Below are positions 13,552-61,501 of a stretch of 64,000 nucleotides of DNA, in pieces. This stretch comes from an uncultured Candidatus Poseidoniales archaeon. Its GTDB lineage: Archaea > Thermoplasmatota > Poseidoniia > Poseidoniales > Poseidoniaceae. The notes under the pieces are model-generated. The model had not been told where the DNA came from. It saw only the letters and a list, made by a program, of their open reading frames with translations, and did no database searches. A program made the position numbers and the translations under genes. The stretch spans positions 9,911 to 73,910 of the forward strand of contig CACEWA010000005.1 of NCBI GenBank assembly GCA_902563095.1, in the 5' to 3' direction. Positions within the stretch are counted from its first letter, which is position 1; the number at the start of each line of letters is the position of its first letter.

Positions 13552-13609
13552 GTTGCTGCGGCTAACTTCTTCCGTATTGTATTTATTCTTGGCTTGAGTG
13601 GCAAAATCA

Positions 13610-14173
13610 ATGCGCATACTTGCTGCTATCCTTGGTGTTGTGATGCTCGCATCGCCGGTTGTAGGTCATGAATTATTGATTTATACTGTAATTGTAAACT
13701 CGGAAGGCGCGCAGCCAGCGGACATTCCCACCGGTGCACTGAAGGAAGGAGATTCCGCTTGGTTTTGGATGAAAGATACCACTGAAAATGCCACCTTAGT
13801 GATAGAATTAGAGAAAGATGGGGCTAAGGTAAGGTCACCTGTTCTACAATTCGCGTGTGAACTAGATGACAACGGTACGAGAATCGATGAGAACTGTATG
13901 ACTCGATACGATTTTGTCTTCAATCAACATACATCTGCAGGGGAATGGAACTTCACTTTCATGACATACGTCAACGATAGTCTGAACAAAACTAGTACAG
14001 GCTCAGTTTACATCCAAGAAGATGTTCACCTCGAGGAAGATTTGGATGAAATTGCAGAAAGTAAGGAGATTTCTAAAGAAGCGATTGCTGGAGTAATAGC
14101 GGCGGTCTCACTGGTGGCGATAGCGTTTCTAATATCAAAAATAGAATCTGAAACTATTCAAGAAAAAGAATAG
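13610..14173 (+). CDS. small secreted protein with C-terminal membrane anchor (hypothetical)
   Basis: N-terminal signal peptide MRILAAILGVVMLASPVVG. The C-terminal hydrophobic helix AIAGVIAAVSLVAIAFLI is followed by a charged tail. The track start at 13598 is a GTG. Confidence 0.5.
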   Translation: MRILAAILGVVMLASPVVGHELLIYTVIVNSEGAQPADIPTGALKEGDSAWFWMKDTTENATLVIELEKDGAKVRSPVLQFACELDDNGTRIDENCMTRYDFVFNQHTSAGEWNFTFMTYVNDSLNKTSTGSVYIQEDVHLEEDLDEIAESKEISKEAIAGVIAAVSLVAIAFLISKIESETIQEKE

Positions 14174-15896: not shown

Positions 15897-16541
15897 TCAC
15901 TCGTCAGCTTCAATGAACTGGCCGATTAGTGCAGAACCAAGTCCCATGGACATTGCTGCGCCTGCCATCCAGCCGCTCATTCCTAGGCTCATGTCGCCAC
16001 CGTCTGGTAGCATGAAGTACCATCCTAGCATACCAACTAGCATCAAAGCGCCTGCTGCCCATGTCGCGAGTTGCGTTACATTTTCTGGAACAGCGTCCAT
16101 TGCGTCAACGCCAGCCATTGGTAGAACCATTGTCAGAGTAATTAGTAGTGCACAGACAATTCCTGCCCACATGCCAATTGTTCCGATCATTCCGCCAGTA
16201 GCCATATCACATGCTTCTTCGTCATCAGTATCATCGCATACATCGCTAAATGCCATTGTCATCGTTATGACAGTGCCATCACATTCTGATTCTGCGCCAC
16301 CAGGTGCCATATTATCAGCGAAATCTTCGCAGTCTGATTCTGAGCTTGCGCCCATCTCGGCTAAATCCATTTCCGACCATGAAGCAGTCAGACTTGTGCC
16401 TGCGTCCATTCCATCATCCATTTCCTCCTCAGGGACTAGCCAGGTGTTACCCATAGCGCCCATGATTCCGAGTACTAGACATAGGGCCGACATAGCCGCC
16501 ATGACCATTCCTTTCATTTTTGCATCCATCATTGTTTTCAC
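15897..16541 (-). CDS. Met-rich, acidic membrane/secreted protein (hypothetical)
   Basis: N-terminal signal/TM (MKGMVMAAMSALCLVLGIMGAMG). Central D/E/C-rich region. C-terminal hydrophobic helices. About 30 Met in 214 aa. Confidence 0.5.
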   Translation of the reverse strand: MKTMMDAKMKGMVMAAMSALCLVLGIMGAMGNTWLVPEEEMDDGMDAGTSLTASWSEMDLAEMGASSESDCEDFADNMAPGGAESECDGTVITMTMAFSDVCDDTDDEEACDMATGGMIGTIGMWAGIVCALLITLTMVLPMAGVDAMDAVPENVTQLATWAAGALMLVGMLGWYFMLPDGGDMSLGMSGWMAGAAMSMGLGSALIGQFIEADE

Positions 16542-16625
16542 ATTCCCGAGGCCTTAACCTCAGAGGGTATCCGAGCCCATGAGTATATGAGTGTTGTACC
16601 GGCGAATTAGTTAAAAAACGGGGTT

Positions 16626-18737: not shown

Positions 18738-20414
18738 ATGGCGAGACCAGCGCAAGTTGAATTTCCAGGCCAAAAACGTCAGCGCATGCGTATGCGTGGC
18801 ACGAAGCAGGCCAATTTGGATACTCAAAAGCGTCTTCGAAAAAACCTCGATACTTTGCTAGAAGAAGGCGAAACTCTTCTCCCTGCAATGACTTGGACTG
18901 GGAAGTTGAAATGGGGCAGAACGGACCCTGTAACTAAAACTCTACGTGATTTAAGAAAAATTCTTGATAGACGCCATGATAAGAAATGGTTGGCAAAACG
19001 AATGATGGCTAAGCGTGGCGATGATGTTGGTAAAGCGATGGCTGGATCGCTTTTGGCAGCCCATGAGGAAGATATTTCTCTAGTTGGAAATTATAGTCAT
19101 CAATCATTTGGAAAGGCTTCATTTGTTCGAAAAGGAGATGGTAAAGTCGCATACCAAGCTGGAATTCAAAACCACCATATGCAGACCTTGCGAATGCTGC
19201 CCTGGGAAGACCATGCGCGAAAAGGATACTTCTTTTTCTCATGGAAAGGAGGATTTGTGTGCACTGGTCCTAGGCCGGAAATTCCCACAGGTTGGTTAGA
19301 TGATGTTCTGAAGAGGTCGAGATTCGATTTCACTAATGAAGGGAATATCTGGGCTACTGAAGGTTTGGAGGTAAAGAACGTCGCAGAAGATGAAATGTCG
19401 GGCGACGGGTATCTAGTAATGAATTTCATCGACGGAAGTAAGGTCGCAATCGGGTTCGATAAATTGGAAGTTGTAAAGGGCAAAACTTCGTTCATTCACG
19501 ATTTGGCACTTTCCATGCTCCCCCCTAATCTTTCGACTGTAATGACTCCTGATGCAGTATGGTTTCCAGAAGGCGCTTCTCGTGATGGAGCAAGAGATGC
19601 CTTAGATCGAGTTCTAGACGGCTGGATGGGTTTGACTCTGAATGAAGGTTCGATTTCCAAGAGAGTAAAATTAGCAGTTCTACATCACCTAAATGATGGA
19701 TTTATTGTTGGAGAAAGGTGGTTTGAATCTGCAGATGAGGCGGTAAAAGAATTGAATGGTTCTACTTCTGAAAAGGAATTAGCACTGATGTTAATGAAAG
19801 AAGCCTCAGGCTCCGGAATTAGAATTTCCAAAGGAGGAGAGGTTAACGAAAGAGGCGGTGATGCTCTAGAAATTGCTGCAACTTCCTGTAATGATGTTCT
19901 TTCTGGCTTGTGGGAAGACCATGGTCTTGCGGGACTAATTGGTATCGGAATCGATGAAGACGAGGCAGAAGATCTGTGGGCTGCTCAATGTAACAAAAAG
20001 CGAGCTTTTGGCAAATTCCTGAAAGATATCGAATCGCAAAGAGCCAAAGCGGACATTACCCAAAAATTCCCTTACCGTAAAGGAAAGATTCCAGGGCCGG
20101 TTGGTATGATTCACGACCTAACTCTAACTGGGTTGGTTGAAGGGATGGGCAAAGCTGAGAAAATGGCTTTGTCGAAAAAATCTGATATCGAAGAAGAGGC
20201 TGCTTCTTGGGCTTGGCTAATGGCTGCTGGGAAATCTGGCGGCCAGGAATGGCAGTTCTCATCTAATTCCCGAGACAAGGGAAGTGCATGGAGTCCCGCT
20301 GCTATTGACGTTTGGTCTGCTGGGAAAGCATTGGTCGATGGAGAAGAAGTGGACTACAAGGCCTGTTTAGAAGTTCTTAGGAAGTCTTGTGGGCAAATCG
20401 AAGAGTTGCCTTAA
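18738..20414 (+). CDS. hypothetical protein (558 aa), basic N-terminus, no recognisable domain
   Basis: Long ORF with coding-like composition. The N-terminal 120 aa are K/R-rich. I find no catalytic or fold motif. Confidence 0.5.
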   Translation: MARPAQVEFPGQKRQRMRMRGTKQANLDTQKRLRKNLDTLLEEGETLLPAMTWTGKLKWGRTDPVTKTLRDLRKILDRRHDKKWLAKRMMAKRGDDVGKAMAGSLLAAHEEDISLVGNYSHQSFGKASFVRKGDGKVAYQAGIQNHHMQTLRMLPWEDHARKGYFFFSWKGGFVCTGPRPEIPTGWLDDVLKRSRFDFTNEGNIWATEGLEVKNVAEDEMSGDGYLVMNFIDGSKVAIGFDKLEVVKGKTSFIHDLALSMLPPNLSTVMTPDAVWFPEGASRDGARDALDRVLDGWMGLTLNEGSISKRVKLAVLHHLNDGFIVGERWFESADEAVKELNGSTSEKELALMLMKEASGSGIRISKGGEVNERGGDALEIAATSCNDVLSGLWEDHGLAGLIGIGIDEDEAEDLWAAQCNKKRAFGKFLKDIESQRAKADITQKFPYRKGKIPGPVGMIHDLTLTGLVEGMGKAEKMALSKKSDIEEEAASWAWLMAAGKSGGQEWQFSSNSRDKGSAWSPAAIDVWSAGKALVDGEEVDYKACLEVLRKSCGQIEELP

Positions 20415-28017: not shown

Positions 28018-29808
28018 TCAGTTGTTAGCGGCTTCTTCACTCTGCGGAGTTACGAAAACTGTGGTCCCGTCACGATCGATATGAGGGACGGAGAATGTTC
28101 CTCCATTAACTGAGACCGGGCATGAGTTACCACATGCTGGAGCAAGGTAGTCTTCACCTGTTTCTGTAAGTACTAGCTTTATTCCGTGGCCTGCAGGTAA
28201 TATTACGTCCAGCGCTTGGAATTCCATCAGCATAACCAAGTTTTGGCCAGGGAAGACTGTTTGAGGGTCGTATCCTCCCGCGTGGTAGCGAATATCCATT
28301 GTAGCATGGCCCAGCCTTAGGCCGGTTTCAGCATCCTGCAATTCTGCGAAAATTTGCCCGCCATCAAACGATGCTGTTACATCTAAATGTAGAGTTGGCA
28401 AACCGGCGATGTGCATCTCTTGTTCAAATCCAGCACACGTGATTGTTACCGATTGAGTTCCTCCCCCAATAACTGATGTGCCTCCAACATTGCTTCCTTG
28501 CTGGTCACAAGTAGAGAGATCGATTGATTCCCATACAGCATCTTGCGGCGGCCATAATTCTTCTATTCTCCACTGGCCATCGTTCCTCTGGATTTGAGCG
28601 TGGTTGTCCGGTTTTGGACCTACTCCTTTGAGATAATATTCGAACCATTCAAACAAATCTTGTCCCCAATCCCACCGGGTCATGTTGTGAATTGCTTCGC
28701 CCCCATATCCTGAATCCTGGTTGTTGTGTTTTGTCCACTGGTCTGGGTAATTATGCTCCCATTGGCCAAGCATCCCTCTAACATCATATCCTGCTGCTGA
28801 ATAATCGAGATACCAATTTACTCCACTAGGTCCACCGAATACTTGGTGGGGGTCAACATTCCAATCTTGCATGCCTTGAATCCAATAGATTGACCCATTC
28901 CAGTTTTGGAATGCTTTGTCGATATGGCTTCTTTCTTCGTAGTAGTTTTCCATGTAAGGATCCAGCTCTCCCAAACCATAAGTCACCGGTCCAGCAAAAA
29001 TCCCTTCAATGATGTCAGGGCATATGTTATCCAAATCATCACCGTTGTAATCTACAGTGCTGCCAAAATAATTCATATGCATTACTTGGCTTCTAGCCTC
29101 TGCACTACCGTTCTTGTACAGCAAGGGGTGCAATGCAGTAGTTCCTGAAATTGGCACTATTGTTTTCAGATGATCGCTGGCAAGTGCTGCTGCTTCCCAT
29201 TGAGTTGCCCCCTCGTATGATTTGCCATACAGCCCTACATTTCCATTCGACCAGTTTTGTTGACCTAGCCATTCAACTGCATGATGAATACCTAGGCCTT
29301 CTCCTGCTCCGCGATAATCAAAACAGCCGCTAGATTCCTCTGTTCCGAATACTGAAACTTGAGCTAATGCATATCCGTGTGGAACGAAATTATCGAAGAT
29401 AAATTCACCACGCCCAGCAGCAACAACGTTTGTTGCTCCTGATTCAGAACCGGGCTGGCCATATGAGTAATACGGGCTAACGATTGCGATTACTGGAACT
29501 TTTTCGCCTTCCAATGTATTCGAAGGTAGCCAATAAGAAAGGTGTACGTTGGAGGTCGGCGGGCCGGTTTCCCAAATGTCTGAAGTATCTACTTCAATCA
29601 TGGCCTCTTGAACATCGAGTGCTGTATGCGGCCCTTGTTCGAGGACCATTGCATAAGTCCCATTCCACTCCCAATCGAGATATTGCCTCTCAGAAATATC
29701 GGGGTAATACGACTCAGTTTCCTGTTTTTCGATGATTTCTTCATCGCCAAAACAGCCTGCAAGTGGCCCGATTAAGACCAAAGCGCATAGCAATATGGCG
29801 ATTCGCAT
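28018..29808 (-). CDS. secreted CocE/NonD family hydrolase (S15 X-Pro dipeptidyl-peptidase-like serine peptidase)
   Basis: GLYGKSYEG is the G-x-S-Y-x-G nucleophile motif of the S15/CocE family. The N-terminus MMRIAILLCALVLIGPLAGCFGDEE is a signal peptide with a lipobox-like LAGC. The track ORF extends to 29901; the start is placed at 29808 to avoid overlap with the divergent neighbour. Confidence 0.6.
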   Translation of the reverse strand: MRIAILLCALVLIGPLAGCFGDEEIIEKQETESYYPDISERQYLDWEWNGTYAMVLEQGPHTALDVQEAMIEVDTSDIWETGPPTSNVHLSYWLPSNTLEGEKVPVIAIVSPYYSYGQPGSESGATNVVAAGRGEFIFDNFVPHGYALAQVSVFGTEESSGCFDYRGAGEGLGIHHAVEWLGQQNWSNGNVGLYGKSYEGATQWEAAALASDHLKTIVPISGTTALHPLLYKNGSAEARSQVMHMNYFGSTVDYNGDDLDNICPDIIEGIFAGPVTYGLGELDPYMENYYEERSHIDKAFQNWNGSIYWIQGMQDWNVDPHQVFGGPSGVNWYLDYSAAGYDVRGMLGQWEHNYPDQWTKHNNQDSGYGGEAIHNMTRWDWGQDLFEWFEYYLKGVGPKPDNHAQIQRNDGQWRIEELWPPQDAVWESIDLSTCDQQGSNVGGTSVIGGGTQSVTITCAGFEQEMHIAGLPTLHLDVTASFDGGQIFAELQDAETGLRLGHATMDIRYHAGGYDPQTVFPGQNLVMLMEFQALDVILPAGHGIKLVLTETGEDYLAPACGNSCPVSVNGGTFSVPHIDRDGTTVFVTPQSEEAANN

Positions 29809-29866
29809 CATTGGGTGCGTAGCACCCATGCGGCAAGAAGATGACCCTGTAATGTATGGGTCGTTT

Positions 29867-30832
29867 ATGCCCGTCCTAGTTACTGGAGCTAGTGGATTCA
29901 TCGGAGCCCACGTAGTATGTGAATTATTGTCGAGGGGTTATTCGGTTAGAGTAATGTTACGCAACCCATCTCTGGCTAAAATGCTGCCAGAAAATGAAAA
30001 ATTAGAGATAGTTCAAGCAGATCTTTTCGATGTTGAGTCGCTAAGAAAAGCCATAGAAGGGTGTGATGATGTTATTCATTGTGCTGCGTCACTATATGTG
30101 GGCGCGAAGGATGTCAAAAGAGACGTTGTTGATCCTTCTGTTGTTGGGGTTAGAAATCTATGTAGTGTAATGGGAGGCGTCAAGAGAATTATTCACACTT
30201 CATCGGTTGCTGCAATCCGTGCAACTAAATTCGAAAATGGCAAGATTTTCTCGAACAAAGATTGGTGTGAAGATGCTTCTGAGGCGTCTAATGCTTATGG
30301 TTTTGCCAAAGCAGAGGGTGAGCGTATCATGCGTGCGTGGGCAAAAGACAGAGATGTTCGTTTAGTAACTATACATCCTTCAATAGTTTTCGGCCCAGTT
30401 TTACATGAAAGACACATTGAAGGTTCTATGTCATATCTGAAGCATTTTGTAAGGGGTCCGCCGTTTGTTCTTGATGTTCACATCAATTTTGTAGATGTTA
30501 GAGATGTTGCCATTGCCCATGTGAATGCTTTAGATAGAGGTGAAAATGGCCACAGATATATCATTCACAAGAAAGGGTTGTGGATGAAAGAAATTGGAGA
30601 AATTTTGAATTCCTCCTTAGAAGGAAAATTTGCAACCCGAAAATTACCGAAATTATTTGCTTATTTATTGGCAGTATTCCATCCAAAATTATCTGTTAAT
30701 CAGTTAAAGAAAGCCCTAGGAACCCATGTTGGTTATGAGGTAGGAGATTCTTTCGAGGTACTCCAATTGCCAAATTATGATATCGAAGCAACCTTAGTCG
30801 ATTCTGTAAACTCCATCAAGGCGCAAGATTGA
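29867..30832 (+). CDS. NAD-dependent epimerase/dehydratase family protein (extended SDR, cinnamoyl-CoA/dihydroflavonol reductase-like)
   Basis: MPVLVTGASGFIGAHVV glycine-rich motif, plus the catalytic Y..xK (NAYGFAKAEGE). The track start is at 29732; the start is placed at the Met preceding the Rossmann motif. Confidence 0.7.
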   Translation: MPVLVTGASGFIGAHVVCELLSRGYSVRVMLRNPSLAKMLPENEKLEIVQADLFDVESLRKAIEGCDDVIHCAASLYVGAKDVKRDVVDPSVVGVRNLCSVMGGVKRIIHTSSVAAIRATKFENGKIFSNKDWCEDASEASNAYGFAKAEGERIMRAWAKDRDVRLVTIHPSIVFGPVLHERHIEGSMSYLKHFVRGPPFVLDVHINFVDVRDVAIAHVNALDRGENGHRYIIHKKGLWMKEIGEILNSSLEGKFATRKLPKLFAYLLAVFHPKLSVNQLKKALGTHVGYEVGDSFEVLQLPNYDIEATLVDSVNSIKAQD

Positions 30833-35369: not shown

Positions 35370-37424
35370 GTGCGGGTAGCGGCGTTACTGGTATTTTCAT
35401 TGTTGATGTGCGTTGCATCTCCTGTTTTAGCCACTGCAAGCATCATGGATGTCGGCGAAGATTCGCCCTTGAAAGCCCTTGATGGAAGTGGTGTGGTAAT
35501 TGCAGTTGCAGATACAGGCATAGATATGGACCATTCTTGTTTTAGAAATTCTACTTTTGAGGTAGGAGGGCCTGGATTAGAGCATAGGAAAATCGTCCAC
35601 TTGAATGATACAGTGGATGATTGGGACACTCAAGGGCATCAACAATTTCGTCACGGCACCCATATTGCTGGGATTTTAGCTTGTGACCAATTAGATGGTG
35701 ATAGTAGTATGCGCTCTCTTTCTCATGGAGCAAAATTAGTGGTTCAAGATATAGTGAATTCTAGCGGATGGGTGGTACCTGAAGATGTCACTTCCCTATT
35801 GGCAGAATCTAGCCGCTATGGAGCAGTAATCAATTCTTGGTCTTGGGGAGACAATACTATAAATTACACGGAAAGGAGTAGTATGGTAGATAAATGGACT
35901 ATTGAAAATCCGTGGTCTCTGGTTTTTGTCGCCCCGGGAAATACAGGGAATATAATGTTAGAGCCATCAAATGCATACAACGTAGTTTCTGTAGTCGCTA
36001 GTGATTCAAATCAAAACGGAAGTTTGTGGTCTGGAAATTCGCACGGCCCTGATGTCAACGAAAGGCGTGGAACGTTTATTGCAGCGCCTGGTATGAGTAT
36101 AGTTTCAGCAAAGGCTGATGGAACAAAATTAGGAATGAATAACGAATCTTATGCAATGACTGGGACTTCGATGGCGGCACCTATGGCGGCATCGTTTACC
36201 GCACTATTACAAGAATTGATACAAACAGAATACGGTTACACCCCTTCTGCACCATTACTACGAGCAATGTTGGCTTCATCTGGCGAGGCTTTGACTGGAG
36301 GCGATCCTGATTCCATGCAAGGTTATGGTCGGCCATCTTTGGAAAGTTTTGAAAATGGATTTATCGTTCATGATTCGTATGCAGTAAATGATTGGGTAGA
36401 GTTAATTCAATCGCGCGGGGGTGTTCTTGAACAAATGATTGCCAACCCTTGGAATGGAAGTGGTGCTGCTGGCCCATTCCTCTCTGAAAATGAATCATGG
36501 AGTAAATTGTATCAGCCGATACCTGGTGAAGATGTGGAAGTTGTAATGTCTTACAATGCTAGACCTGGTGGGTATGAAATTGATGATTTGAGATTAATTG
36601 TAACAACTTCAGATGGCAGATTTGCAATAGACGACCAAATGAGTAATTCAGGATATAGTCAACTATACTATGGGTCTTTTAGAGAGCCTTTGCAAATGAA
36701 TTCTAGTAATGAAACCACAGTAATGATACGGCTACCTGCATCCCAACTAGAAGGTGTTGAATGGGTAAGTATCGAAGTTGTTGCTAATGACTTGTATGAA
36801 GGATTGAATGTTGGTTATTTGGGTGTCGAGGGGACGAAAATTGGGTTCGGAGTGATTGGAACTGGTCTGCAAAATTTAACTCAAAATACAGCTCCAAAAA
36901 TTACAGTTATCGATAGCCCAATGGGTGGAGAAAATTATTCTGAAAATTTTTCACTCTTATTGAATATTTCAGATGAAGAAAGTGATGGTTATGTGGTCGC
37001 TATTCGTCTAAACAATTCAAACTACTCGGTTGAATTAAGTGATTGTGCTATTATGTTAGAATATTCATCTAATGTTTCATGTGAAGTAGATATTGTTAGA
37101 GATTTGATTCCTAGACCAGTAAATAGAGAAGATTGGAAATTCGAAGTAATAGTTGTTGATGATAATTCTTCAATTTGGACGGGGTCTGAAATGTCTGTAT
37201 ATCTTAGCAATAATTTCTCAATTTTTTGGACTTCTCCTTTGATTGATAATCCTGAAGATTCGCCTTCCGTCGATCAGGATGAGGGAGTCGAGCAAAACCG
37301 CGCATTATTATGGGGAATTATTGGCGTTGTGTTAGGTGTTATTGTGGCCGCAGGTGTTATGTTTAGAGGTTTTGAGAGGCGGGTTTTGGATGGGGTTCCA
37401 CCGCCATTCAGAGAGGAAGAGTGA
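35370..37424 (+). CDS. secreted subtilisin-like serine protease (peptidase S8) with C-terminal membrane anchor
   Basis: Catalytic triad motifs VAVADTGID (Asp), HGTHIAGILA (His) and GTSMAAPMAA (Ser). N-terminal signal peptide. C-terminal hydrophobic helix plus charged tail. Confidence 0.8.
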   Translation: MRVAALLVFSLLMCVASPVLATASIMDVGEDSPLKALDGSGVVIAVADTGIDMDHSCFRNSTFEVGGPGLEHRKIVHLNDTVDDWDTQGHQQFRHGTHIAGILACDQLDGDSSMRSLSHGAKLVVQDIVNSSGWVVPEDVTSLLAESSRYGAVINSWSWGDNTINYTERSSMVDKWTIENPWSLVFVAPGNTGNIMLEPSNAYNVVSVVASDSNQNGSLWSGNSHGPDVNERRGTFIAAPGMSIVSAKADGTKLGMNNESYAMTGTSMAAPMAASFTALLQELIQTEYGYTPSAPLLRAMLASSGEALTGGDPDSMQGYGRPSLESFENGFIVHDSYAVNDWVELIQSRGGVLEQMIANPWNGSGAAGPFLSENESWSKLYQPIPGEDVEVVMSYNARPGGYEIDDLRLIVTTSDGRFAIDDQMSNSGYSQLYYGSFREPLQMNSSNETTVMIRLPASQLEGVEWVSIEVVANDLYEGLNVGYLGVEGTKIGFGVIGTGLQNLTQNTAPKITVIDSPMGGENYSENFSLLLNISDEESDGYVVAIRLNNSNYSVELSDCAIMLEYSSNVSCEVDIVRDLIPRPVNREDWKFEVIVVDDNSSIWTGSEMSVYLSNNFSIFWTSPLIDNPEDSPSVDQDEGVEQNRALLWGIIGVVLGVIVAAGVMFRGFERRVLDGVPPPFREEE

Positions 37425-37499
37425 TTCATCAAAGCGCGAGTGAACATTAAGACTAGTAACACCGTGGGCGTGATGTCCGAAGGACAAAGGTGAGACAAA

Positions 37500-38504
37500 A
37501 TGGGAGAAAGACTCTATGTTGGAATTGATTTGGGAACATACCAATCAACTATTGCAAGTAGTGCAGGATCATTAGAAACTATTGAGACGGTTGTAGGACG
37601 TCCAAAAGACCCGGTTGCTAGAAATTTCCTAGGCCGAGATGTTCTATTCGGTAATGATGCTCTGAAGAATAAATTGGCTTGTAACCTATACCGCCCAATG
37701 GCTGCTGGTGTTGCGCAAGATGATGAAGCAAACCTCGCTGCTGCTAAGGCGTTTGTAACTCACCTTATCGAGACTGTTGGACCTGAAGATTACGACGAGG
37801 TTTTCGGAGTAATTTGTTCTCCATCACACGTTTCATTCACAGACAAGAGCAATTTAGTTGCTACACTTCGTGGTCAAGTCAATGCGATTATGGTGGTAAC
37901 CGAGCCTTTCGCTACAGCATACGGAATTGGAGAGATTTCTGGTTCAATCTGTGTTGACATTGGAGCAGGTACAACCGATATTGCTCGCCTTTACGGAATC
38001 TTCCCAACTGAAGAAGACCAATTAACAATCCAGGAAGCTGGAGATTGGATCGATTTGCAACTTATGGAATTAGTTCAGAAGAAGTACACAGGTGCTCAAG
38101 TAACAAAGGATATGGTTCGCAAGTGGAAGGAAGAGTTTTCCTATGTTAATGGTGATGACCGAGAACAGATGGTCGAATTATCTGTTGAAGGTAAGAAGCA
38201 AGTTGTCGATGTTGGCGACTTGATCAAGTCTGCTTGTTCAATGGTTGTTGGAAAGGTTGGGTCTGCAATCAAAGCAATTGTAGCAACGGCTGACCCTGAA
38301 TATCAACCAATTTTGCGGAATAACATCATCCTATCTGGTGGCGGCTCTCTAATCGATGGAATTGCTGACGCTATTGCAAATGATATCGCAGATATTGGAG
38401 ATGTGACCGTAACTTGTGTTGACGACCCTATCGAAAAGGTTGCAACTGGTGCTATGGCACTGGCCCAAGACATGCCTGATGAGCAATATACCGCCATCAA
38501 CTAA
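37500..38504 (+). CDS. actin-fold ATPase (MreB/ParM/archaeal actin-like family)
   Basis: Phosphate-1 GIDLGT (residues 8-13), phosphate-2 DIGAGTTD, and adenosine motif ILSGGGS, in the canonical order and spacing. The 334-aa size is that of MreB/ParM/Ta0583-type proteins. Confidence 0.7.
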   Translation: MGERLYVGIDLGTYQSTIASSAGSLETIETVVGRPKDPVARNFLGRDVLFGNDALKNKLACNLYRPMAAGVAQDDEANLAAAKAFVTHLIETVGPEDYDEVFGVICSPSHVSFTDKSNLVATLRGQVNAIMVVTEPFATAYGIGEISGSICVDIGAGTTDIARLYGIFPTEEDQLTIQEAGDWIDLQLMELVQKKYTGAQVTKDMVRKWKEEFSYVNGDDREQMVELSVEGKKQVVDVGDLIKSACSMVVGKVGSAIKAIVATADPEYQPILRNNIILSGGGSLIDGIADAIANDIADIGDVTVTCVDDPIEKVATGAMALAQDMPDEQYTAIN

Positions 38505-38554
38505 GGGTCTCACAATGGGCCCATAGGGCCCTCCAACCAATGAAAGGTTGAATA

Positions 38555-39847
38555 ATGGTAGTTGTGCGATTGGAGTTAATGACGTTAGGCGCAGATACCC
38601 CAGGTGGCATCCGTCGTATGACTGAAACGACTGGTGATGAGCGAGCAGCGCTCGAAGGAATGTTACGCGCATATCCCGTTGACCAACTCGTTGAAGAGGT
38701 CCTTGTCGCATGGCAAGAATTGGCTGATAGAAACGAAGATTTGGTTACTTCAAAACAGAGATTGAGAGTTTTAGAACTCGACCTTGCGGAGCGTAAAGAC
38801 GAGGTTGCTCCAGAAGTGGCTCAATTGAAGGCTGCAGAGAATGACCTTGAAGAATCAGGAGCAAGAATTGTTCACTTGGAAAGATTGCTCGAAGATACAC
38901 GAAAAGAGTTGGCAGAAAATAGTTCCAGTATTTCTGTAGAAGAAAGGGAGGCTCTTGAAAACGAAGCCTCTCAATTAAGAGAATTAACTACTCAACAAGA
39001 CGATGTTATCGCTGAAATGGAAGGCCGTATGGGACAAATGGTCGAAGCTTTGGAGCGGGCGGCTGATGCTGGTCTAACCAGTGTTACTGCAGATGAGGTC
39101 CGCGCTTTGAAAGCCCAATCAGATTCACTGTCTAGCGACTTGGAGGCTGAGAAGGCCGCCAATAATGCACTTGAAGAAGAACGTCAAAGATTGAGAGATA
39201 TTGCTGATAGATTGCGTGGATTGTTAGATGCTCGCGACACCCGTCTTGCGGAATTAGAAGAACAATTAGAACGAGTGATGCAAGGCCCAAGATCGGTTTC
39301 TGCAGAACATGATTATCTGGTTGAGCAAATTGAAGAATTAAAGCGTAGATTGCTTGAAAGAAATCGCGAATATGAATCTCTAAGAAGAAGAGAGAGAAGA
39401 TTGCACAATGATGTATTCGAAAGGGATGAGAGAATCCAGCAAATGTCCCTAACTATTGGTGATTTGGAATCTGCACTAACAGACAGAACCTCAGAGGTTC
39501 GTGAATTAGAATCTCAAAGAGATACTGCGGTAAACCAACTCGATGGAGTAAAGCGCTCTGAAAGAACTCGTGAAGTTGTAGGACGTGTGTTTGCTGATTC
39601 CTTATCTCTTGTACGTAGTCATGATGAAAGGGAATTACGCAAGGAGATTTATTCCAATTCGCCTGATGTAGAGAGAACTATTTCAGCGCCAAATGCTGAT
39701 GATATGCAAACTTTAGCAGATGGTGGAACTGTCGACCTTGATACTGCATTAGAAGTTATTGAGAAAGGAATGGATGTTCCGAAAGAGGCACGTCCAAATT
39801 CCCCTGGTGGAACAGGAGACCCTGTAATCTACGAAGACGAGGATTGA
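38555..39847 (+). CDS. acidic coiled-coil protein (430 aa), hypothetical
   Basis: Almost entirely heptad-like E/L/R/A/Q-rich sequence, with no enzymatic motifs. It starts 50 bp after the actin-fold gene on the same strand. Confidence 0.55.
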   Translation: MVVVRLELMTLGADTPGGIRRMTETTGDERAALEGMLRAYPVDQLVEEVLVAWQELADRNEDLVTSKQRLRVLELDLAERKDEVAPEVAQLKAAENDLEESGARIVHLERLLEDTRKELAENSSSISVEEREALENEASQLRELTTQQDDVIAEMEGRMGQMVEALERAADAGLTSVTADEVRALKAQSDSLSSDLEAEKAANNALEEERQRLRDIADRLRGLLDARDTRLAELEEQLERVMQGPRSVSAEHDYLVEQIEELKRRLLERNREYESLRRRERRLHNDVFERDERIQQMSLTIGDLESALTDRTSEVRELESQRDTAVNQLDGVKRSERTREVVGRVFADSLSLVRSHDERELRKEIYSNSPDVERTISAPNADDMQTLADGGTVDLDTALEVIEKGMDVPKEARPNSPGGTGDPVIYEDED

Positions 39848-55482: not shown

Positions 55483-56175
55483 TTATAAGTCTAAATCATC
55501 ATCTAGTAATTCCGAGACTTCAGATTGAGCATCTTCCCACTCAGCACGGCCACGCTCTCTTTCTGCTATAGTAGCGGCTTCAACGACCTCTTTTAGTGAA
55601 TCTGGAGCTTTAGAAGCCACGCGTTCTGCCACAACCTTATCAGCCATCCCTCGGTCTTCACCAACACGGTCAGAACGGTCTACTGCGGCTATGGGGCGAC
55701 TTGGAATTGTACGGGCTCCATGATCAATATCTTCTGCTTGTAGAGAATCTGCCATGATGTCTAAGACCTCTTCTGGGGGCAACTCGTCTTTCCATGGGTT
55801 TTGATTTGCAACCGATTGAACTACGTTCTTCTTTTCTCGTTTAGCTTGGTTAGCAAATAATTCTCCAATATCTTCACTAGTAGGGAGTGGTTTTGTTTCA
55901 GCCATTTCATTCGCTAGAAATTGCTGCTCACGTAATACAGGCCCATGGACCTCATCGTGGTCGTATCGATTGGGATTGGCCGCCATGGCTAATAGGTCTC
56001 TAGCAAATTGGAATAATTCATCGGATTGAGGCGCTTTAGCAATTAATTCCCTCACCTTAGTGTGGTGGGTTATACATTTCCGGCACCTACTCGAGCCCGC
56101 AATATCTGGGGCGTCGCAGCGAAGGCAACAGGCTTGGAAACCCAAGTCCTTCATCGCTCTTCTCGGCATCGCCAT
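55483..56175 (-). CDS. hypothetical protein with N-terminal C4 zinc finger (230 aa)
   Basis: CLRCD...CRKC near the N-terminus, followed by acidic C-terminal regions. Divergent from the M50 protease gene. Confidence 0.4.
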   Translation of the reverse strand: MAMPRRAMKDLGFQACCLRCDAPDIAGSSRCRKCITHHTKVRELIAKAPQSDELFQFARDLLAMAANPNRYDHDEVHGPVLREQQFLANEMAETKPLPTSEDIGELFANQAKREKKNVVQSVANQNPWKDELPPEEVLDIMADSLQAEDIDHGARTIPSRPIAAVDRSDRVGEDRGMADKVVAERVASKAPDSLKEVVEAATIAERERGRAEWEDAQSEVSELLDDDLDL

Positions 56176-56378
56176 GTATTCTCCTAATCCCGGTCAGCAA
56201 AGAATGCTTTCGCGCGAGGCTTCAAAACCCACCGTGGTGAGAACCGGGTATGGCGAGAGACCCACGGGCCGACATCCTAGAGGACGACCTCTTCCCAAAA
56301 CAGAGTCCGCGAATACATCGTGTACACGCTCATAGGGCTGGCGATGGGACGATTCATTTCAATACAGGAGGAGGCTTC

Positions 56379-57146
56379 ATGGGAATTAACAATCGCCAAC
56401 CAGTCCAACTCCACAAGGGGAAAATATGGCACTTTAGCGATGAAGAAAAACGCCATCTTACACTTGCTACTGCAGCATTTACATTTGCTCTTGGACTATT
56501 GATGGCAGGAGGCATTTTGCGAATAAATGCTCAAGGTGGTCTTGAGCAATGGATTGCCATTGTTCTATTATCCATGCCTGTTATGTTAATTGCAGTTGGC
56601 CCTGCGTTTTTGTTACACGAAATAGGTCACAAAATTGTCGCTAAGAAATATGGTTGCTGGGCTGAATTTAGAGTAGACCCTAGTGGTTTAAAATTTGGAA
56701 TAGCCTTTGTTGCATTAACCGGATTTTTGTTCATGGCACCTGGTGCAGTAATGGTTGCAGGTTTAGTTACAAGAAGGCAAAACGGACATATTGCGATCGC
56801 CGGACCTGCTGTTAATTTTGGTCTATTTCTAATCGGCATACCGCTTGGTGGAATAATCCTTGGACTCACTGGTGCAACAGAATCAGCAGCTTACTTAGAA
56901 GCCGGTGCAATTAATTTGAAAGCAATGGTCTATGATGTTGTATTTTGGTGGGTTGCAGCCAATCTCGGATTGGGATTCTTCAATATGATTCCATTCGGAC
57001 CACTCGATGGTGCTAAAATCAAGGATTGGAGCGAACCGGTTTGGTTCTTTAGTTTCATGACATTTATTGTAATCATCTACATGTGGTGGACTGGAGTATT
57101 CAGTCCAATCGATGACGTTGCGTTACGAATTGCTGGATGGTTCTAA
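56379..57146 (+). CDS. site-2 protease family zinc metalloprotease (peptidase M50)
   Basis: HEIGH zinc-binding motif inside a TM helix, and the downstream NMIPFGPLDG (N..P...LDG) motif. Multiple TM helices. The start is placed at the Met 7 nt downstream of a GGAGG; the track ORF starts at 56250. Confidence 0.6.
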   Translation: MGINNRQPVQLHKGKIWHFSDEEKRHLTLATAAFTFALGLLMAGGILRINAQGGLEQWIAIVLLSMPVMLIAVGPAFLLHEIGHKIVAKKYGCWAEFRVDPSGLKFGIAFVALTGFLFMAPGAVMVAGLVTRRQNGHIAIAGPAVNFGLFLIGIPLGGIILGLTGATESAAYLEAGAINLKAMVYDVVFWWVAANLGLGFFNMIPFGPLDGAKIKDWSEPVWFFSFMTFIVIIYMWWTGVFSPIDDVALRIAGWF

Positions 57147-58925
57147 TCAACCTTCAAGATAAGCACTTCTTACTGGATTCTCATCCAAGTGGAAGAAGGA
57201 GTAAGTTGCCCACCAAGTAATTGTGTCAAGGGCATCTACTAGGTTACTAGTGCCACTTCTTTCTTCTCCGTAATCCTTGCCTGTTGTGTCCATCCAATCA
57301 ATCATCTCGTCAACAGTATCACAGGTTTGGTGGTAACACCAATATCCATCAACAAGTCCTCCGAATCCCATTGTTACAGTTCCGAGATTATCTTGGAAAC
57401 TTGCATGGTCTGAGCGGGCGGTCGTATCTTCATAGACAATAATTTCAGGCCTATCTTTTGCCAACCAATCGTCTACTTTCCAAGTACTTGAGTCATAACC
57501 GGTTCCAATCAATGTAGATGTTTGTTCTTCAACACCAATGGCATCAGAACCGATCCACAGTGCCAAATTAACCATTCCTGGCTGGTTCATAACATCATGA
57601 TCAAGACTTGGTCCAATGTAAACTCTCATCGGCCAAACTTCCTCGTCTTTTGGATAACCATCAGGGTCGATTTCCGGGTCCGGGTCACAGTTAGGCTCTC
57701 CGCCTCCATGGTTGCCGCCACAAGGCGCTCCACCGCCACCAGGCCAGTTAACTCCAGCCATATCTAGGTTCACGTAGTTGGTAACTTCGACGTCAGGGTT
57801 GTCTTCTTTGACCCATTCCTCGGTCCAGTAATCGCTACCTCTCTTGCCACCTTCTTCACCAGACCAAAGGCAGAAAACCATGGTATTTCTTGTACTGTAA
57901 CTAGCCATTGCTTCTGCAACAGTCAAAACCATACTGGTTCCAGCAGTGTTATCGTAAGCACCAACTCTTGTCCCGTAGGTTCTTTCACCGAGAACGTGGG
58001 GGGAAATCAATCCACCATTAATCGGTGGAGCAATGTCGAAATGGGCACCAAAAACCATCCATTTATCGGGGTTAACTTCACCGAATCTGTAACCACATAT
58101 GTTGTACGCTTCAGGATTTTGTTGTCCAGTATTAATTGAATCGTAAACGAATCTTTGATTGATAACTTCGAGACCGAAACCTTCGAGCTCTTTTATCAGA
58201 TATTGTGCCCCGTCCTCGTAAGCAGCATTACCTTGTCCTGCCCATCTATCCAAGTAACCCACAGCATTATCTTGTCCGCAACCTACCACTGTAAGGTCTG
58301 TACATGGGGTTTCATCTGACATGATGTTAATGTAATTCAAGACGGTCCTTCCATCTACCATCCCCATCGAGTGCCTGCCGCCTTCTGGTTCACTGTAAGC
58401 GGCAGCAAATGGCCTATCTATTCCTAGTCTAATTGCTACAACCTTTCCTCCATTATTATCTGAAGGTTGAACAGAATCAAGCGAGGTATTGGACGAAGTC
58501 CTCGAAATGCCCTGGTTGTCAGACTTGTCAAAACCGTCTCGCGCATACCAAGTTCTCCAAGATTCTGTGAGGTCGCGGATTGGCCAATCTTCTCTTCCGT
58601 ATTCTCCAACCATTACTACTGCAGTATCGGTCCTAGGAGGGGCTAGGACAGTAAGTTGTACCGATTCTCCAGCTTCTATGTCAACAACGGTGGAATTTTG
58701 CACAAAACCATCTTCAGGATTTAGTATCAAGTAAGGGACAAAGGCAGACAAATCAGAATCAGCAGCGATCGTTATTGCTTGAAATTCTCCACCAATCCAC
58801 GTGGCTGGAGTGACAACTACGTCTCCTTCAGAAACAGTAGAATCAACTTCTTCACCGAAGCAACCACTTAGTGGTGCAAGACAGAATAACAGAGCGAGAA
58901 AACCCGCTGTTATTGGCCGCTGCAT
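57147..58925 (-). CDS. secreted M28 family zinc aminopeptidase-like protein (paralog 1)
   Basis: The M28 metal-ligand motifs GAHFDIAPP, YDNTAGTSMVL, WSGEEGGKRGSDYW, and NLDMAGVN. The N-terminus MQRPITAGFLALLFCLAPLSGCFGEE is a signal peptide with lipobox-like LSGC. The track ORF extends to 59054. Confidence 0.7.
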   Translation of the reverse strand: MQRPITAGFLALLFCLAPLSGCFGEEVDSTVSEGDVVVTPATWIGGEFQAITIAADSDLSAFVPYLILNPEDGFVQNSTVVDIEAGESVQLTVLAPPRTDTAVVMVGEYGREDWPIRDLTESWRTWYARDGFDKSDNQGISRTSSNTSLDSVQPSDNNGGKVVAIRLGIDRPFAAAYSEPEGGRHSMGMVDGRTVLNYINIMSDETPCTDLTVVGCGQDNAVGYLDRWAGQGNAAYEDGAQYLIKELEGFGLEVINQRFVYDSINTGQQNPEAYNICGYRFGEVNPDKWMVFGAHFDIAPPINGGLISPHVLGERTYGTRVGAYDNTAGTSMVLTVAEAMASYSTRNTMVFCLWSGEEGGKRGSDYWTEEWVKEDNPDVEVTNYVNLDMAGVNWPGGGGAPCGGNHGGGEPNCDPDPEIDPDGYPKDEEVWPMRVYIGPSLDHDVMNQPGMVNLALWIGSDAIGVEEQTSTLIGTGYDSSTWKVDDWLAKDRPEIIVYEDTTARSDHASFQDNLGTVTMGFGGLVDGYWCYHQTCDTVDEMIDWMDTTGKDYGEERSGTSNLVDALDTITWWATYSFFHLDENPVRSAYLEG

Positions 58926-59174
58926 ATTACCCCGTAGATGCGACCCCTTCTCAATGCTACTATTAATTGCGAAATCAAGGGAGCAAAGGTTTGATAATCT
59001 TCTAAGTCCAATTATATCATGAGAATAATGGTAATCACAGCCCCACTTATTCATGAATTGCTAAGAAAGAAGAGATGCGCTAAAGGCGTTTGCCGCCCAA
59101 CAAGAACAAGTTATCTATGGGCAAAAATGGTAAGGTCTGAACAAGAAGATAAAACTCCGGTAATCGAAGGGTAA

Positions 59175-59912
59175 TCACTCATTCATCAATTCTTGATTAA
59201 TCATGAAAAATTGACTTCCTAATATCCCAATTAAGGCGATAGTGAAGAAACTCGGCCATGGAAAGCCCCCTTCTAGTCCAAGCATAACTAAAATTCCAAT
59301 TAGAATAAACACGTATCCAGCAATAGCACAAATTAGTGGGATTAACGATGTATGCCAACGATAGTGATATGCGCGATAAGCCATTTCCATACTTATTTCG
59401 AGGCTACCCGAATCCATCATGTGAAGCATCAGCCTAAACGCTACATGAGCAATTTGAGAAATAACCGCAACCAGTGTTAGAATCATGAAAATAATTCCAG
59501 TGATTGCAATAATTCCTCCCTCTGGTTCACCGAACATAGAGAACCAACTAAAAAACTCTGTGAATCCGAATCCAGAAGCCCGAATTCCGAAAGGAGTAAT
59601 CTCGAAAAATCCACCTAGTGTAATCCAACTTGCGAATAGCCCGATAATCAACATCAAAGCACCTGTGCCATGTAGGGCGTGGGATAACGCAACAATTCCA
59701 CTCATCGGTTCTGTAGCAGATTTTGCTACGGCTTTTGGGGTTTCACCCCACTCGAATTCTCCGTCACAGACAGGACAAGAAAATTCTCCATAAGCATCGT
59801 CATCAAGTTCGATTTCCGCGTCACAATGGGGACAAAGAATTTCTACCATACAACAAACCATGAGAGGTATGTAAAGAACATTGGCCCGTTTTTGAAATCG
59901 GTTACGAATCAC
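59175..59912 (-). CDS. membrane protein with N-terminal zinc ribbon (hypothetical)
   Basis: CPHCDAEIELDDDAYGEFSCPVCDG (C-x2-C-x16-C-x2-C) is followed by about 5 hydrophobic helices. It sits between the two M28 paralogs on the same strand. Confidence 0.5.
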   Translation of the reverse strand: MIRNRFQKRANVLYIPLMVCCMVEILCPHCDAEIELDDDAYGEFSCPVCDGEFEWGETPKAVAKSATEPMSGIVALSHALHGTGALMLIIGLFASWITLGGFFEITPFGIRASGFGFTEFFSWFSMFGEPEGGIIAITGIIFMILTLVAVISQIAHVAFRLMLHMMDSGSLEISMEMAYRAYHYRWHTSLIPLICAIAGYVFILIGILVMLGLEGGFPWPSFFTIALIGILGSQFFMINQELMNE

Positions 59913-61501
59913 AACTCATTAGGAACTGGCGTTTGGTCCATATGAAGGAAAGCATAGACTGCCCACCATGTAACGATGTCCCATGAATGAACAAGATTGT
60001 TAATTCCTGTAGAATCATCTGTGCCCATGTATTCAATCATAGTCTCCATCGTATCGCATTCACGGTGATAGCAAGGGTATCCATCTACCAACCCGTTCCA
60101 CCCCAGAGTGGCCACGCCGATGTTTTGGAACGAATCATGGTCACTTCGGGCCGTTGGTGATTCGTAAATCGCCACAGTATCTTCATAGATATCTCCCCAA
60201 AGTGGACTTTCTCCATCTGCGGCCCAGGCCTCTCTTCCACGCTCAATTTCATATCCAAGATCTAGTGCATCAGCGCCAATCCATTCTGCTAGATAGTACA
60301 TTCCGGGTTGGTCTATCACATCCCCAGTTCCATCCGGCCCTAAATAAACAGACAGAGCATAATCGCCAGGGTAATTGACTCCAGCCATATCCAAATTGAG
60401 ATAGTTGCTTACTGTAATTCCATCAGGCAGGTCGTTAGCGAAAGAACGCGACCCCCACAAACCTTCTTCTTCAGAAGACCATAAACAGAACACCATGGTT
60501 CTCCTTGCATCAAATTCAGCAAGGACCTTTGCAGTACTCAAAACCATACTTGAACCAGCCGCGTTATCGTAAGCACCATGTCTGGTGCCGTAGCCGGGAA
60601 CACCAATTTCTGCACCCGGAGTGTAAGCTACAGGAGGGGCGATGTCAAAGTGAGCGCCGAAAATAAGCCACTCGTCTGGATAGACTGAACCGTCCTTGTA
60701 TCCACAAATATTGACTGCCCACGCAGTATTCCATTGGAACCGGTGTACTTCTACTCGGTCTAACCCATATCCTTGCATTACCCCTTCAAAGTAAGTTATT
60801 GCATGTTCATAGGAGGGATTTGCATTACCAATCCAACGGTCTAGATATCCTACAGCACCATCAGGTCCACAAGTTGCACAAGGGGTGTCGTCTGCAATGA
60901 AATCAACCCATTCGTATACATCTCGGCCATTCACCCAGCCCCCGCTTGCGCCAACACCATCGGCCTCTGTTAGGTCGGATCTCTGGTCACGAATAGTTTC
61001 AAGCGATTTGATGACAACATCTCCTCCGCTTTGGTTGGCAGGAACAATCCATTTCCATTCTCCACCAGCATCTTCGTTGTCAGTCGCCATTATTGCTGCT
61101 GAACCTTCAGTTTGACCACCAGCCCAAGCCGCCCACGAAACATCAGGTGCACGAATTGGCCAATTTTCTCGTCCATGGTCCCCAATTAGGAATATGACAT
61201 CCGAGTTTCTTGGTGGGAACAAGACGTTCAGCGATACAGATTCCCCGTCTTTGAGGTCAAAGACGGTTCCGTTTTGAGCTCTCATCGATCCTGGGTCTTG
61301 AACAAAATACGGAACAAACACACTCATTGCAGCATCTGCTTTTAGTGTAATCACAGACCATTCTCCACCAGGAATAATAGATGGAGATACCTTCAAATCA
61401 CTTTCAGAAATTTCCTCAGGAGGGCTATCTTCTCCGAAACAACCGGAGAGGGGCGCAAGGCACATCACGGCCACCATCAGCAAAGCGCGCATCACATCCA
61501 T
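59909..61501 (-). CDS. secreted M28 family zinc aminopeptidase-like protein (paralog 2)
   Basis: The same motif set as paralog 1: GAHFDIAPP, YDNAAGSSMVL, WSSEEEGLWGS, and NLDMAGVN. The N-terminus MDVMRALLMVAVMCLAPLSGCFGED is a signal peptide. The track ORF extends to 61600. Confidence 0.7.
   Translation of the reverse strand: MDVMRALLMVAVMCLAPLSGCFGEDSPPEEISESDLKVSPSIIPGGEWSVITLKADAAMSVFVPYFVQDPGSMRAQNGTVFDLKDGESVSLNVLFPPRNSDVIFLIGDHGRENWPIRAPDVSWAAWAGGQTEGSAAIMATDNEDAGGEWKWIVPANQSGGDVVIKSLETIRDQRSDLTEADGVGASGGWVNGRDVYEWVDFIADDTPCATCGPDGAVGYLDRWIGNANPSYEHAITYFEGVMQGYGLDRVEVHRFQWNTAWAVNICGYKDGSVYPDEWLIFGAHFDIAPPVAYTPGAEIGVPGYGTRHGAYDNAAGSSMVLSTAKVLAEFDARRTMVFCLWSSEEEGLWGSRSFANDLPDGITVSNYLNLDMAGVNYPGDYALSVYLGPDGTGDVIDQPGMYYLAEWIGADALDLGYEIERGREAWAADGESPLWGDIYEDTVAIYESPTARSDHDSFQNIGVATLGWNGLVDGYPCYHRECDTMETMIEYMGTDDSTGINNLVHSWDIVTWWAVYAFLHMDQTPVPNEL

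Follow-up and report, generated by a model that had tools for sequence, protein, structure and literature searches.

The magnetosome actin MamK carries a set of ATPase motifs, namely phosphate-1, connect-1 (xEPx), phosphate-2 (DxGxG), adenosine (GG) and connect-2 (G), and has partners encoded nearby, among them MamJ and Mg-1g50 (PMC10653835) and, in deep-branching magnetotactic bacteria, the coiled-coil proteins Mad20, Mad23, Mad25 and Mad26, which form a network with MamK and Mad28 (PMC12748827). BeeR is a three-stranded tubular actin of Verrucomicrobiota whose hallmark is a disordered N-terminal extension of 30–50 amino acids (aa) (PMC11929497), and the nearest family to MamK is reported to be salactin (PMC10746226). 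In a further archaeal system, arcadin-2 is described as a regulator of the crenactin filament (PMC5173319). Older work mentions only "some archaeal" proteins within the MamK and ParM branches. Here we analyze a window of 64,000 nucleotides from an uncultured Candidatus Poseidoniales archaeon (assembly GCA_902563095.1, contig CACEWA010000005.1, positions 9,911 to 73,910), in which a gene for an actin-like ATPase is followed by a gene for a coiled-coil protein. Homologues of the pair come from Candidatus Poseidoniales, Poseidoniaceae and Thalassarchaeaceae, that is, from the Marine Group II (MGII) archaea, which are globally abundant and uncultured and whose cell biology is essentially unknown. 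We read the pair as a MamK-like actin filament with a coiled-coil rod as its lineage-specific partner, a reading to which we give a probability of about one half.

The actin gene was confirmed in the open reading frame (ORF) list of the window, and its 334-aa product carries the three nucleotide-binding signatures that the original prediction had named, in the order given there: GIDLGT (residues 8–13), DIGAGTTD (153–160) and ILSGGGS (277–283), with the connect-1 motif TEPF (134–137) between the first and the second. When the protein was aligned with MamK of AMB-1, all five MamK ATPase motifs were found (GIDLGT, TEPF, VDIGAGTTD, LSGGGS and ATGA). The N-terminus, MGERLYVGIDLGT, has no extension: seven residues precede the phosphate-1 motif. 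Against the NCBIfam profile hidden Markov models (HMMs), the protein matched MamK (NF040964) with 329.2 bits and E = 2.5e-98, residues 5–331 covering positions 1–328 of the 335-position model. MamK is thus the top-scoring family by a wide margin, yet the score stays under the curated cutoff of 400. The other actin families followed with 209.6 bits for BeeR (cutoff 530), 78.5 and 66.9 bits for two MreB models (cutoffs 293 and 365.75), 32.6 bits for salactin (cutoff 400), 19.7 bits for ParM (cutoff 417) and 16 bits for FtsA. In Pfam, which holds no MamK model, the top match was MreB_Mbl at 80.6 bits; salactin scored 26.2 against a cutoff of 27.1, and volactin was not among the Pfam matches of the window protein, while a close homologue of that protein, P0074, scored 26.9 against a cutoff of 35.

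Structural comparison gave the same ranking. The best sequence match in the PDB was MamK (5jyg/5ljv; 203 bits, E = 5e-59 over residues 3–330), followed by BeeR (E = 4.5e-36), MreB (E ~ 1e-12) and actin (about 30 bits). An AlphaFold2 (AF2) model with a mean predicted local distance difference test (pLDDT) of 83.5 and a predicted TM-score of 0.80 had as its top fold match the MamK filament subunit 5ljv_A (TM-score 0.90/0.92, root-mean-square deviation 2.3 Å), ahead of BeeR (TM-score 0.87) and of MreB and actin (~0.75; MreB 0.75–0.78). On sequence, therefore, the 334-aa protein is unambiguously assigned to the MamK family over its full length, and the ATPase that had been regarded as unplaceable in any described family has a family after all. 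The expectation that it belongs among the polymerizing actin-like proteins agrees with these matches. Because its score lies under the MamK cutoff and its surroundings hold no magnetosome genes, it is a MamK-family relative and not MamK in the strict sense. We consider it very likely that the protein polymerizes, since its closest characterized relatives, MamK and BeeR, both do so, as does the far more divergent Mad28 (PMC10653835, PMC11929497).

That MamK is the best family match, and that the actin fold is common to kinases and Hsp70, could also be taken to mean that the gene encodes either a true magnetosome MamK or a non-polymerizing enzyme or chaperone of the actin fold. Either has only a minute probability. 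No magnetosome genes were found by Pfam in essentially all ORFs of the 64-kb window or in the syntenic contigs, the score falls short of the subfamily cutoff, and the archaeal clade lies outside the AMB-1 MamK group in a neighbor-joining (NJ) tree. As for enzymes and chaperones, the Hsp70 and butyrate-kinase scores were negligible (16.6 and 15.2 bits, far under the cutoffs), and neither kinases nor Hsp70 appeared among the top 50 fold matches, so that the clustering with non-polymerizing members of the fold against which the original prediction had warned was not seen.

A rod-shape determinant of the MreB type is what the public annotation implies: homologues are named "rod shape-determining protein MreB" by JGI and NCBI, and MreB_Mbl leads the Pfam matches, although in a library that lacks a MamK model. 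We rate this as very improbable. The MreB scores are a small fraction of their NCBIfam cutoffs while MamK reaches 329 bits, the PDB E-value for MreB is ~1e-12 against 5e-59 for MamK, and the fold similarity is 0.75–0.78 against 0.90. The window contains no MreC, MreD, RodA or PBP genes, and by Pfam annotation it contains no Mre, FtsZ/CetZ or ESCRT genes. To our knowledge, neither peptidoglycan nor pseudomurein has been reported in MGII. The label is unlikely to describe the function of the window actin because MGII cells are coccoid, with a diameter of about 0.7 µm (PMC6864105).

The family is narrowly distributed. When 1.84 billion cluster representatives were searched exhaustively with HMMER, only 121 proteins reached E <= 1e-30; among them, the Poseidoniales actins form one 50%-identity cluster (its representative 77% identical to the window protein) plus fragments. 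The result is an isolated clade, whose members share at least 77% identity and match nothing else above 48%. Fragments of 53–69% identity were considered as a possible sister lineage and rejected, because they proved to be ordinary Poseidoniales genes whose calls are frameshifted; several such "intermediate-identity" fragments (P0260 and P0329 among them) lie on long ENA contigs. Both ORFs of the pair are conserved across hundreds of Poseidoniales contigs, the original MG-II chromosome CM001443 (locus L054) included, and neither can therefore be a chance feature. The actin was matched in 295 GTDB species genomes, with 78–99% identity across Poseidoniales; the locus comparisons reported here used the best 80 of these 295 species-level loci.

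The named relatives outside the order are all bacterial, coming from KSB1, Gemmatimonadota, Nitrospira, Verrucomicrobiota and Acidobacteriota, with one MamK of a magnetotactic bacterium. The NJ tree, built on 332 columns from 86 sequences with 100 bootstraps, unites the Poseidoniales actins at 100% support and separates them from the AMB-1 MamK core (77%) as well as from the BeeR clade. Since all named relatives are bacterial, the ancestor of Poseidoniales probably acquired the gene from bacteria, in an ancient horizontal transfer at the base of the order. Among the papers searched, none describes this clade.

The second gene was called mechanically as an ORF at 38555..39847 (+) with 430 codons, and the original prediction described a 430-aa, acidic protein that begins fifty bp after the actin gene and is essentially one long coiled coil. 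The ORF is present in the window list as described. Comparison with 67 orthologues, however, places the conserved start at Met-9 (38579), and the upstream ATG is cut off from Met-9 by a stop codon in two related genomes; the true protein therefore has 422 aa, and the gap to the actin gene is 74 nt. The coiled coil accounts for about 70% of it. Hydrophobic 3.5-residue periodicity (z up to 8.1) runs through residues ~50–330, where positions a and d are hydrophobic at a fraction of 0.54–0.67, against 0.08–0.16 elsewhere, and an AF2 model built from a shallow alignment (pLDDT 70.8) has long helices at 34–115, 120–165, 168–235 and 241–324, followed by a shorter helix and a disordered tail. Outside the coiled coil lie the first ~33 and the final ~95 residues. 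With AF2 helices of 46–84 residues and heptads, the protein falls into the generic coiled-coil class. Its acidity (isoelectric point 4.54) is real and not distinctive: the actin (4.33) and the upstream S8 protease (4.25) are lower still, which makes acidity a proteome-wide trait.

Family searches returned nothing specific for this protein. Pfam matches at E <= 10 were confined to generic coiled-coil families that scored far under their cutoffs, no NCBIfam model reached its cutoff and the matches were again generic coiled-coil families, a profile search of the PDB had a best E of 0.35, and Foldseek of the model against the PDB gave 0 matches at E <= 0.001, with SMC-arm-like hairpins only. Several candidate identities were rejected. 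A precomputed PF24161 (CCDC39) label rests on a weak match; the crescentin-like or intermediate-filament-like model Rod_CreS scored 10–16 bits against a cutoff of 100; and SMC_prok_A (36.7 against 729 bits) and ASRP (21.3 against 300) match the coiled-coil part only, ABC-type ATPase head domains being absent from the 422 aa.

Conservation tells a different story from that of a generic coil. The length is fixed at 420–424 aa with hardly any indels among the 67 orthologues and the homologues at L086/L088. The Arg-rich core reaches 93–99% column identity per 15-residue window in 68 sequences, above the actin mean of 0.905; a helix break, AADAGLTSVTADEVR, is a further conserved element. Within the disordered tail (pLDDT < 50 for residues 389–422), P409, G410, G411, G413, P415 and V416 are invariant, and the tail is a candidate short linear interaction motif. 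Because a fixed length and invariant motifs occur together with no family or structure match, the protein is a specific, order-restricted one and not a featureless spacer. As far as seen, it is confined to the same order as the actin clade. A 94% identical homologue labelled Candidatus Marinimicrobia bacterium (P0155) probably sits on a mis-binned contig.

Of the 78 informative GTDB species loci, 77 have the two genes adjacent and co-directional, as do six further contigs, the most divergent clade included; an apparent exception at L062 is a scaffold gap inside the gene. The coiled-coil gene is thus syntenic with the actin gene across the whole order. Between the most divergent clades, identity is 80–83% for the actin and 69–74% for the coiled-coil protein, and in the same loci 57–66% for FtsY, 61–72% for ribosomal LX, 61–72% for geranylgeranylglyceryl phosphate synthase (GGGPS), 32–41% for prefoldin and 32–45% for the S8 protease. 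Because their identities exceed or match those of the block neighbors, the actin and coiled-coil genes are under strong constraint. In favor of a partnership, coiled-coil or acidic neighbors recur independently beside MamK-family genes, a series that includes the helical motif fused to the N-terminus of the KSB1 long forms; the fixed length and invariant motifs of the coiled-coil protein point the same way. A physical or functional partnership between the two proteins is accordingly a possibility we put forward tentatively, and the pair is probably a cytoskeletal pair not described before.

Several observations weigh against reading the locus as a MamK-like filament with its own coiled-coil partner. 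On the side of the actin, the sub-cutoff MamK score has been given above, and Pro270 aligns with MamK A278, the residue whose A278D change gives a non-polymerizing MamK (5ljw). The NJ tree groups the clade with the KSB1 long forms at only 37% bootstrap and does not resolve the donor or the deeper nodes. On the side of the pairing, the entire ~12-kb block OMPdecase…FtsY–prefoldin–L18Ae–S8–actin–coiled-coil–GGGPS is syntenic in every clade examined, and adjacency within one order therefore says little. One genome (ETNP1_MAG_19; L024, 7107–10796) has a 3.9-kb insertion between the two genes, the sole adjacency break seen, which encodes a 1,229-aa secreted, repeat-rich, transmembrane-anchored surface protein. 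Relatives outside Poseidoniales have no homologue of the coiled-coil protein, and the neighbors of the bacterial relatives differ, being Amidase_3 or a second actin with Roadblock and small-GTPase genes. The two genes are also suggested to lie on separate transcripts, because each appears to have its own generic promoter box and a hairpin stands between them.

Alternatively, the two genes may be functionally independent neighbors kept together by frozen synteny, the actin being a filament system that stands alone and the coiled-coil protein serving, for example, chromosome organization, division or envelope scaffolding. The kept order and orientation of the block from OMPdecase to GGGPS, the separate generic promoter boxes and intervening hairpin, the insertion tolerated at L024 and the missing homologous pairing outside the order all fit this view, as do the weak SMC- and ASRP-like matches of the coiled coil and the resemblance of its model to SMC arms. 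Those matches, however, fall far under the cutoff and come with no ATPase head. The coiled-coil protein is moreover restricted to the order of the actin clade, both genes are among the most conserved of the block, and adjacent lineage-specific partners are the rule in characterized MamK-family systems (PMC10653835, PMC12748827). We regard independence as somewhat unlikely, though it is the alternative to be taken most seriously.

If the filament-and-partner reading holds, the actin would hydrolyze ATP and build MamK-like cytoplasmic filaments in small coccoid cells, having been kept by very strong purifying selection after its acquisition from bacteria. The coiled-coil protein is a rod of four heptad segments spanning ~290 residues, most likely a parallel dimer or an antiparallel hairpin, and could act as an adaptor or scaffold that binds the acidic filament through its basic core or a terminal motif. 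The rod might then serve to link a cargo, or the membrane, to the filament, in parallel with the MamJ/Mad coiled-coil proteins and the crenactin arcadins. By analogy, and with low confidence, candidate roles would be nucleoid partitioning, as for salactin, and the organization of envelope or shape, as for volactin.

The surroundings of the pair are chromosomal. The window order is FtsY, prefoldin, ribosomal L18Ae/LX, a membrane-anchored S8 subtilase, the actin gene, the coiled-coil gene and a convergent GGGPS gene, in agreement with the housekeeping and surface neighbors claimed earlier; by Pfam, the rest of the window holds metabolic genes and many peptidases. A two-gene, co-directional layout of actin and adaptor is also that of plasmid segregation systems, and among the dynamic actins of archaea there is a precedent for a role in DNA partitioning (salactin, PMC10746226). 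The actin could accordingly be imagined as a ParM- or AlfA-like segregation protein, encoded by a plasmid or virus that has integrated into the chromosome, and the coiled-coil protein as its atypical adaptor. This is highly improbable. The ParM HMM score (19.7 bits) is a small fraction of its cutoff of 417; the locus has no DNA-binding domain, no ParR-like small gene was found among the window ORFs, and a search for iterons or centromere-like repeats gave only short chance repeats inside coding sequence, as the original prediction had likewise seen no plasmid-partition context. The gene also keeps a fixed chromosomal place between FtsY/prefoldin and GGGPS in 295 species-level genomes, and the base composition of the window is uniform and native. 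The coordinates of the pair and of its features are collected in Table 1.

Table 1. Features of the actin and coiled-coil genes, in positions of the 64,000-nucleotide window.
Feature	Position	Strand	Details
Putative promoter box of the actin gene, GTGAACATTAAG	37440..37451	+	About -60 to -49 from the ATG
Hairpin TGTCC-GAA-GGACA in the actin 5' untranslated region (5'-UTR), then Shine–Dalgarno (SD) sequence GGTGA	37474-37486 (hairpin); 37489-37493 (SD)	+	Weak
MamK-family actin-like ATPase	37500..38504	+	334 aa; HMM, PDB, AF2 fold, conservation
GC hairpin GGGCCC-ATA-GGGCCC after the actin stop	38517..38531	+	Possible 3' end or terminator; weak
Putative promoter box of the coiled-coil gene, GAAAGGTTGAAT	38542..38553	+	-37 to -26 from the ATG at 38579
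Poseidoniales-specific coiled-coil protein	38579..39847	+	422 aa; start from comparison, heptads, AF2 helices
N-terminal head motif DERAALEGML.GYPV.QLVEEVL.AW.EL	38636..38722	+	Residues 20-48; mostly invariant columns in a 22-sequence alignment
Arg-rich core including helix break GPRSVSAEHD	39164..39433	+	Residues 196-285; nearly invariant
Motif RSERTREVVGRVFADSLSLVR closing the coiled coil	39554..39616	+	Residues 326-346; window 331-345 with 99% column identity
C-terminal tail RP.SPGG(S/T)GDPV.(F/Y)(E/D)(D/E)ED	39791..39844	+	Within the disordered region

The putative actin box is conserved as GTGAAC(A/C)TT(G/C)AAG across 17 diverse loci, and that of the coiled-coil gene as GAAAG(G)TT(G/C)AA(G/T) in 17 of 17 aligned loci. 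No conserved SD sequence precedes the ATG of the coiled-coil gene, and the box geometry, which matches archaeal TFB recognition element (BRE)/TATA spacing, suggests a leaderless or near-leaderless mRNA. An (A/G-rich)NTTGAA(T/A/G) box recurs ~25–35 nt upstream of many starts in the window, for example those at 3623(-), 9713(-), 21732(+), 38579(+), 41268(-) and 43202(+), with no classical TTTAWA box; the TTGAA-type box probably serves this genome as its TATA-like promoter element, and several window genes appear leaderless. A regulon-specific signal was considered and dropped: TTGAA(T/A/G) also precedes unrelated genes, and the upstream boxes are for that reason read as generic promoters. Upstream of the actin gene, the GGTGA SD is invariant in the locus alignment, whereas the stem of the 5'-UTR hairpin differs by clade (GTCC/GGAC, ACCC/GGGT, TCCGC/GCGGA; mean z -0.85 against shuffles). 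The hairpin after the actin stop, varying in sequence, occurs in most loci, often followed by a T-run in other clades (mean z -1.3). Both hairpins thus fold only slightly better than shuffled sequence. A check for covariation with RNAalifold gave no consensus for either hairpin, and the known RNAs of the window are three tRNAs only.

Downstream, the coiled-coil and GGGPS genes overlap tail-to-tail by 19 nt (39829–39847), and a similar overlap occurs in many related loci. Elsewhere in the window, six ORFs of 214–618 aa had no significant Pfam match (7998–9548 (-), 11761–13617 (-), 15913–16557 (+), 18738–20414 (+), 55483–56175 (-) and 59175–59861 (-)). Peptidases are dense, with S15, S8, M50 and two M28 enzymes at 28018–29901 (-), 35370–37424 (+), 56250–57146 (+), 57147–59054 (-) and 59909–61501 (-).

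Directly upstream of the actin gene, the S8 subtilase (35370–37424 (+)) has a C-terminal transmembrane anchor in all Poseidoniales, with wide variation in length (about 680–1170 aa) and sequence. Its short cytoplasmic tail, encoded within 37300–37424, often carries (V/P)P(P/A)F, which is absent in the L086/L088, L045 and L047 groups; in the clade of the window it ends in ...PPPFREEE, loosely like the ...DPVIYEDED of the coiled-coil protein. A tail motif PP(P/A)F…EEE common to both proteins was nevertheless rejected: its conservation is patchy, and acidic C-termini are common in the proteome.

The bacterial relatives show other arrangements. The closest non-archaeal relatives, one of them named candidate division KSB1, share 43–48% identity with the window actin and are 523–1254 aa long (L081, 10001–18682 of GCA_020722815.1 DYKB01000023.1; L083, 4864–13716). 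In these long forms, a conserved helical motif near the N-terminus (..KKERFREWTKSLG..) is joined through a long, acidic and Pro-rich linker to a MamK-like domain at the C-terminus, and the N-terminal extensions have no similarity to the coiled-coil protein (best E = 0.65). Downstream of each lie another actin-like gene, three genes of the Roadblock/LC7 type and one for an Arf/Ras-like small GTPase, an arrangement that resembles a bacterial polarity module, so far undescribed, made of an actin and MglA/MglB-like proteins. Among soil and sediment loci (L090–L169, e.g., L097 and L098), a protein of ~330–420 aa is encoded directly upstream of a short-form MamK-like gene, on the same strand, in 40 of 70; it has an N-terminal cytoplasmic segment, one transmembrane helix and an Amidase_3 domain, which Pfam recognized at E = 2e-44 and 2e-49. 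A cell-wall amidase next to a MamK-like actin is thus a recurrent pairing in non-magnetotactic bacteria. Three loci (L155, L160 and L161) instead encode, immediately upstream of the MamK-like gene, a protein of 320–419 aa that combines a PAS domain with a long repetitive coiled coil; coiled-coil neighbors thus occur independently in this actin family.

The S8–actin layout can be likened to the Amidase_3–actin layout because the transmembrane-anchored Amidase_3 gene lies directly upstream in those 40 of 70 bacterial loci. On a broader idea, the pair, possibly together with the membrane-anchored S8 protease, would form an unrecognized archaeal cytoskeletal apparatus with a filament tethered to the envelope or nucleoid by its own coiled-coil adaptor, and non-magnetosome MamK-like actins would in general position membrane-anchored envelope hydrolases. 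We consider this improbable; if true, it would mean a tethered MamK-type filament in one of the most abundant archaea of the surface ocean.

Taken together, the window actin adds to a known family a new branch, archaeal and not of the magnetosome, and is accompanied by a candidate partner without known relatives. The MamK-family actin spans the order and is more conserved than FtsY or the ribosomal protein of the same block, and its function should be other than rod shape or magnetosome alignment, because the host is coccoid and non-magnetotactic. It would be a further clear example of an archaeal order in which a cytoskeletal gene of bacteria has become fixed, and a widespread "MreB" mis-annotation would be corrected. 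As the actin is small and looks soluble, its filament architecture and its binding to the coiled-coil protein are approachable without culturing the host.

Among the known systems, the magnetosome MamK, whose ATP-dependent filaments are two-stranded and non-staggered, is the nearest in sequence: the window actin is ~40% identical to it over the full length, has the five ATPase motifs and finds its best structural match in the MamK filament. It differs in its archaeal host, the lack of a magnetosome cluster, the score under the NCBIfam cutoff and its place in a separate clade of at most 48% identity to others. Like mamK with mamJ, it adjoins an acidic, lineage-restricted partner candidate without detectable homologues (PMC10653835), which here lies downstream of the actin gene and apparently has its own promoter; as in RS-1, the candidate is a coiled coil (PMC12748827). 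The resemblance of the coiled-coil protein to the MamJ and Mad partners is functional and positional only. BeeR is a non-magnetotactic offshoot of the MamK lineage and comes second to MamK by HMM, PDB sequence and fold, but the window actin lacks the 30–50-aa extension, scores 210 against the BeeR cutoff of 530 and falls outside the BeeR clade. MreB shares the actin fold, the Pfam MreB_Mbl match and the public annotation; the window actin scores 4–5 times under the MreB cutoffs, has no Mre/Rod partners and belongs to a coccoid host. Salactin and volactin are, like it, archaeal, chromosomal, dynamic actins not tied to rod shape, and they offer DNA partitioning and shape transition as precedents, although the similarity to salactin is marginal and salactin has poor synteny and no known partner. 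The crenactin–arcadin system of Thermoproteales, to which the original prediction had pointed, is a fair analogy for how the pair might work, as its filament is formed by an archaeal actin whose gene is accompanied by partner genes specific to the lineage. Crenactin itself belongs to another actin family, closer to eukaryotic actin; the window actin, in the PDB search, matches MamK far better than actin (203 bits against ~30).

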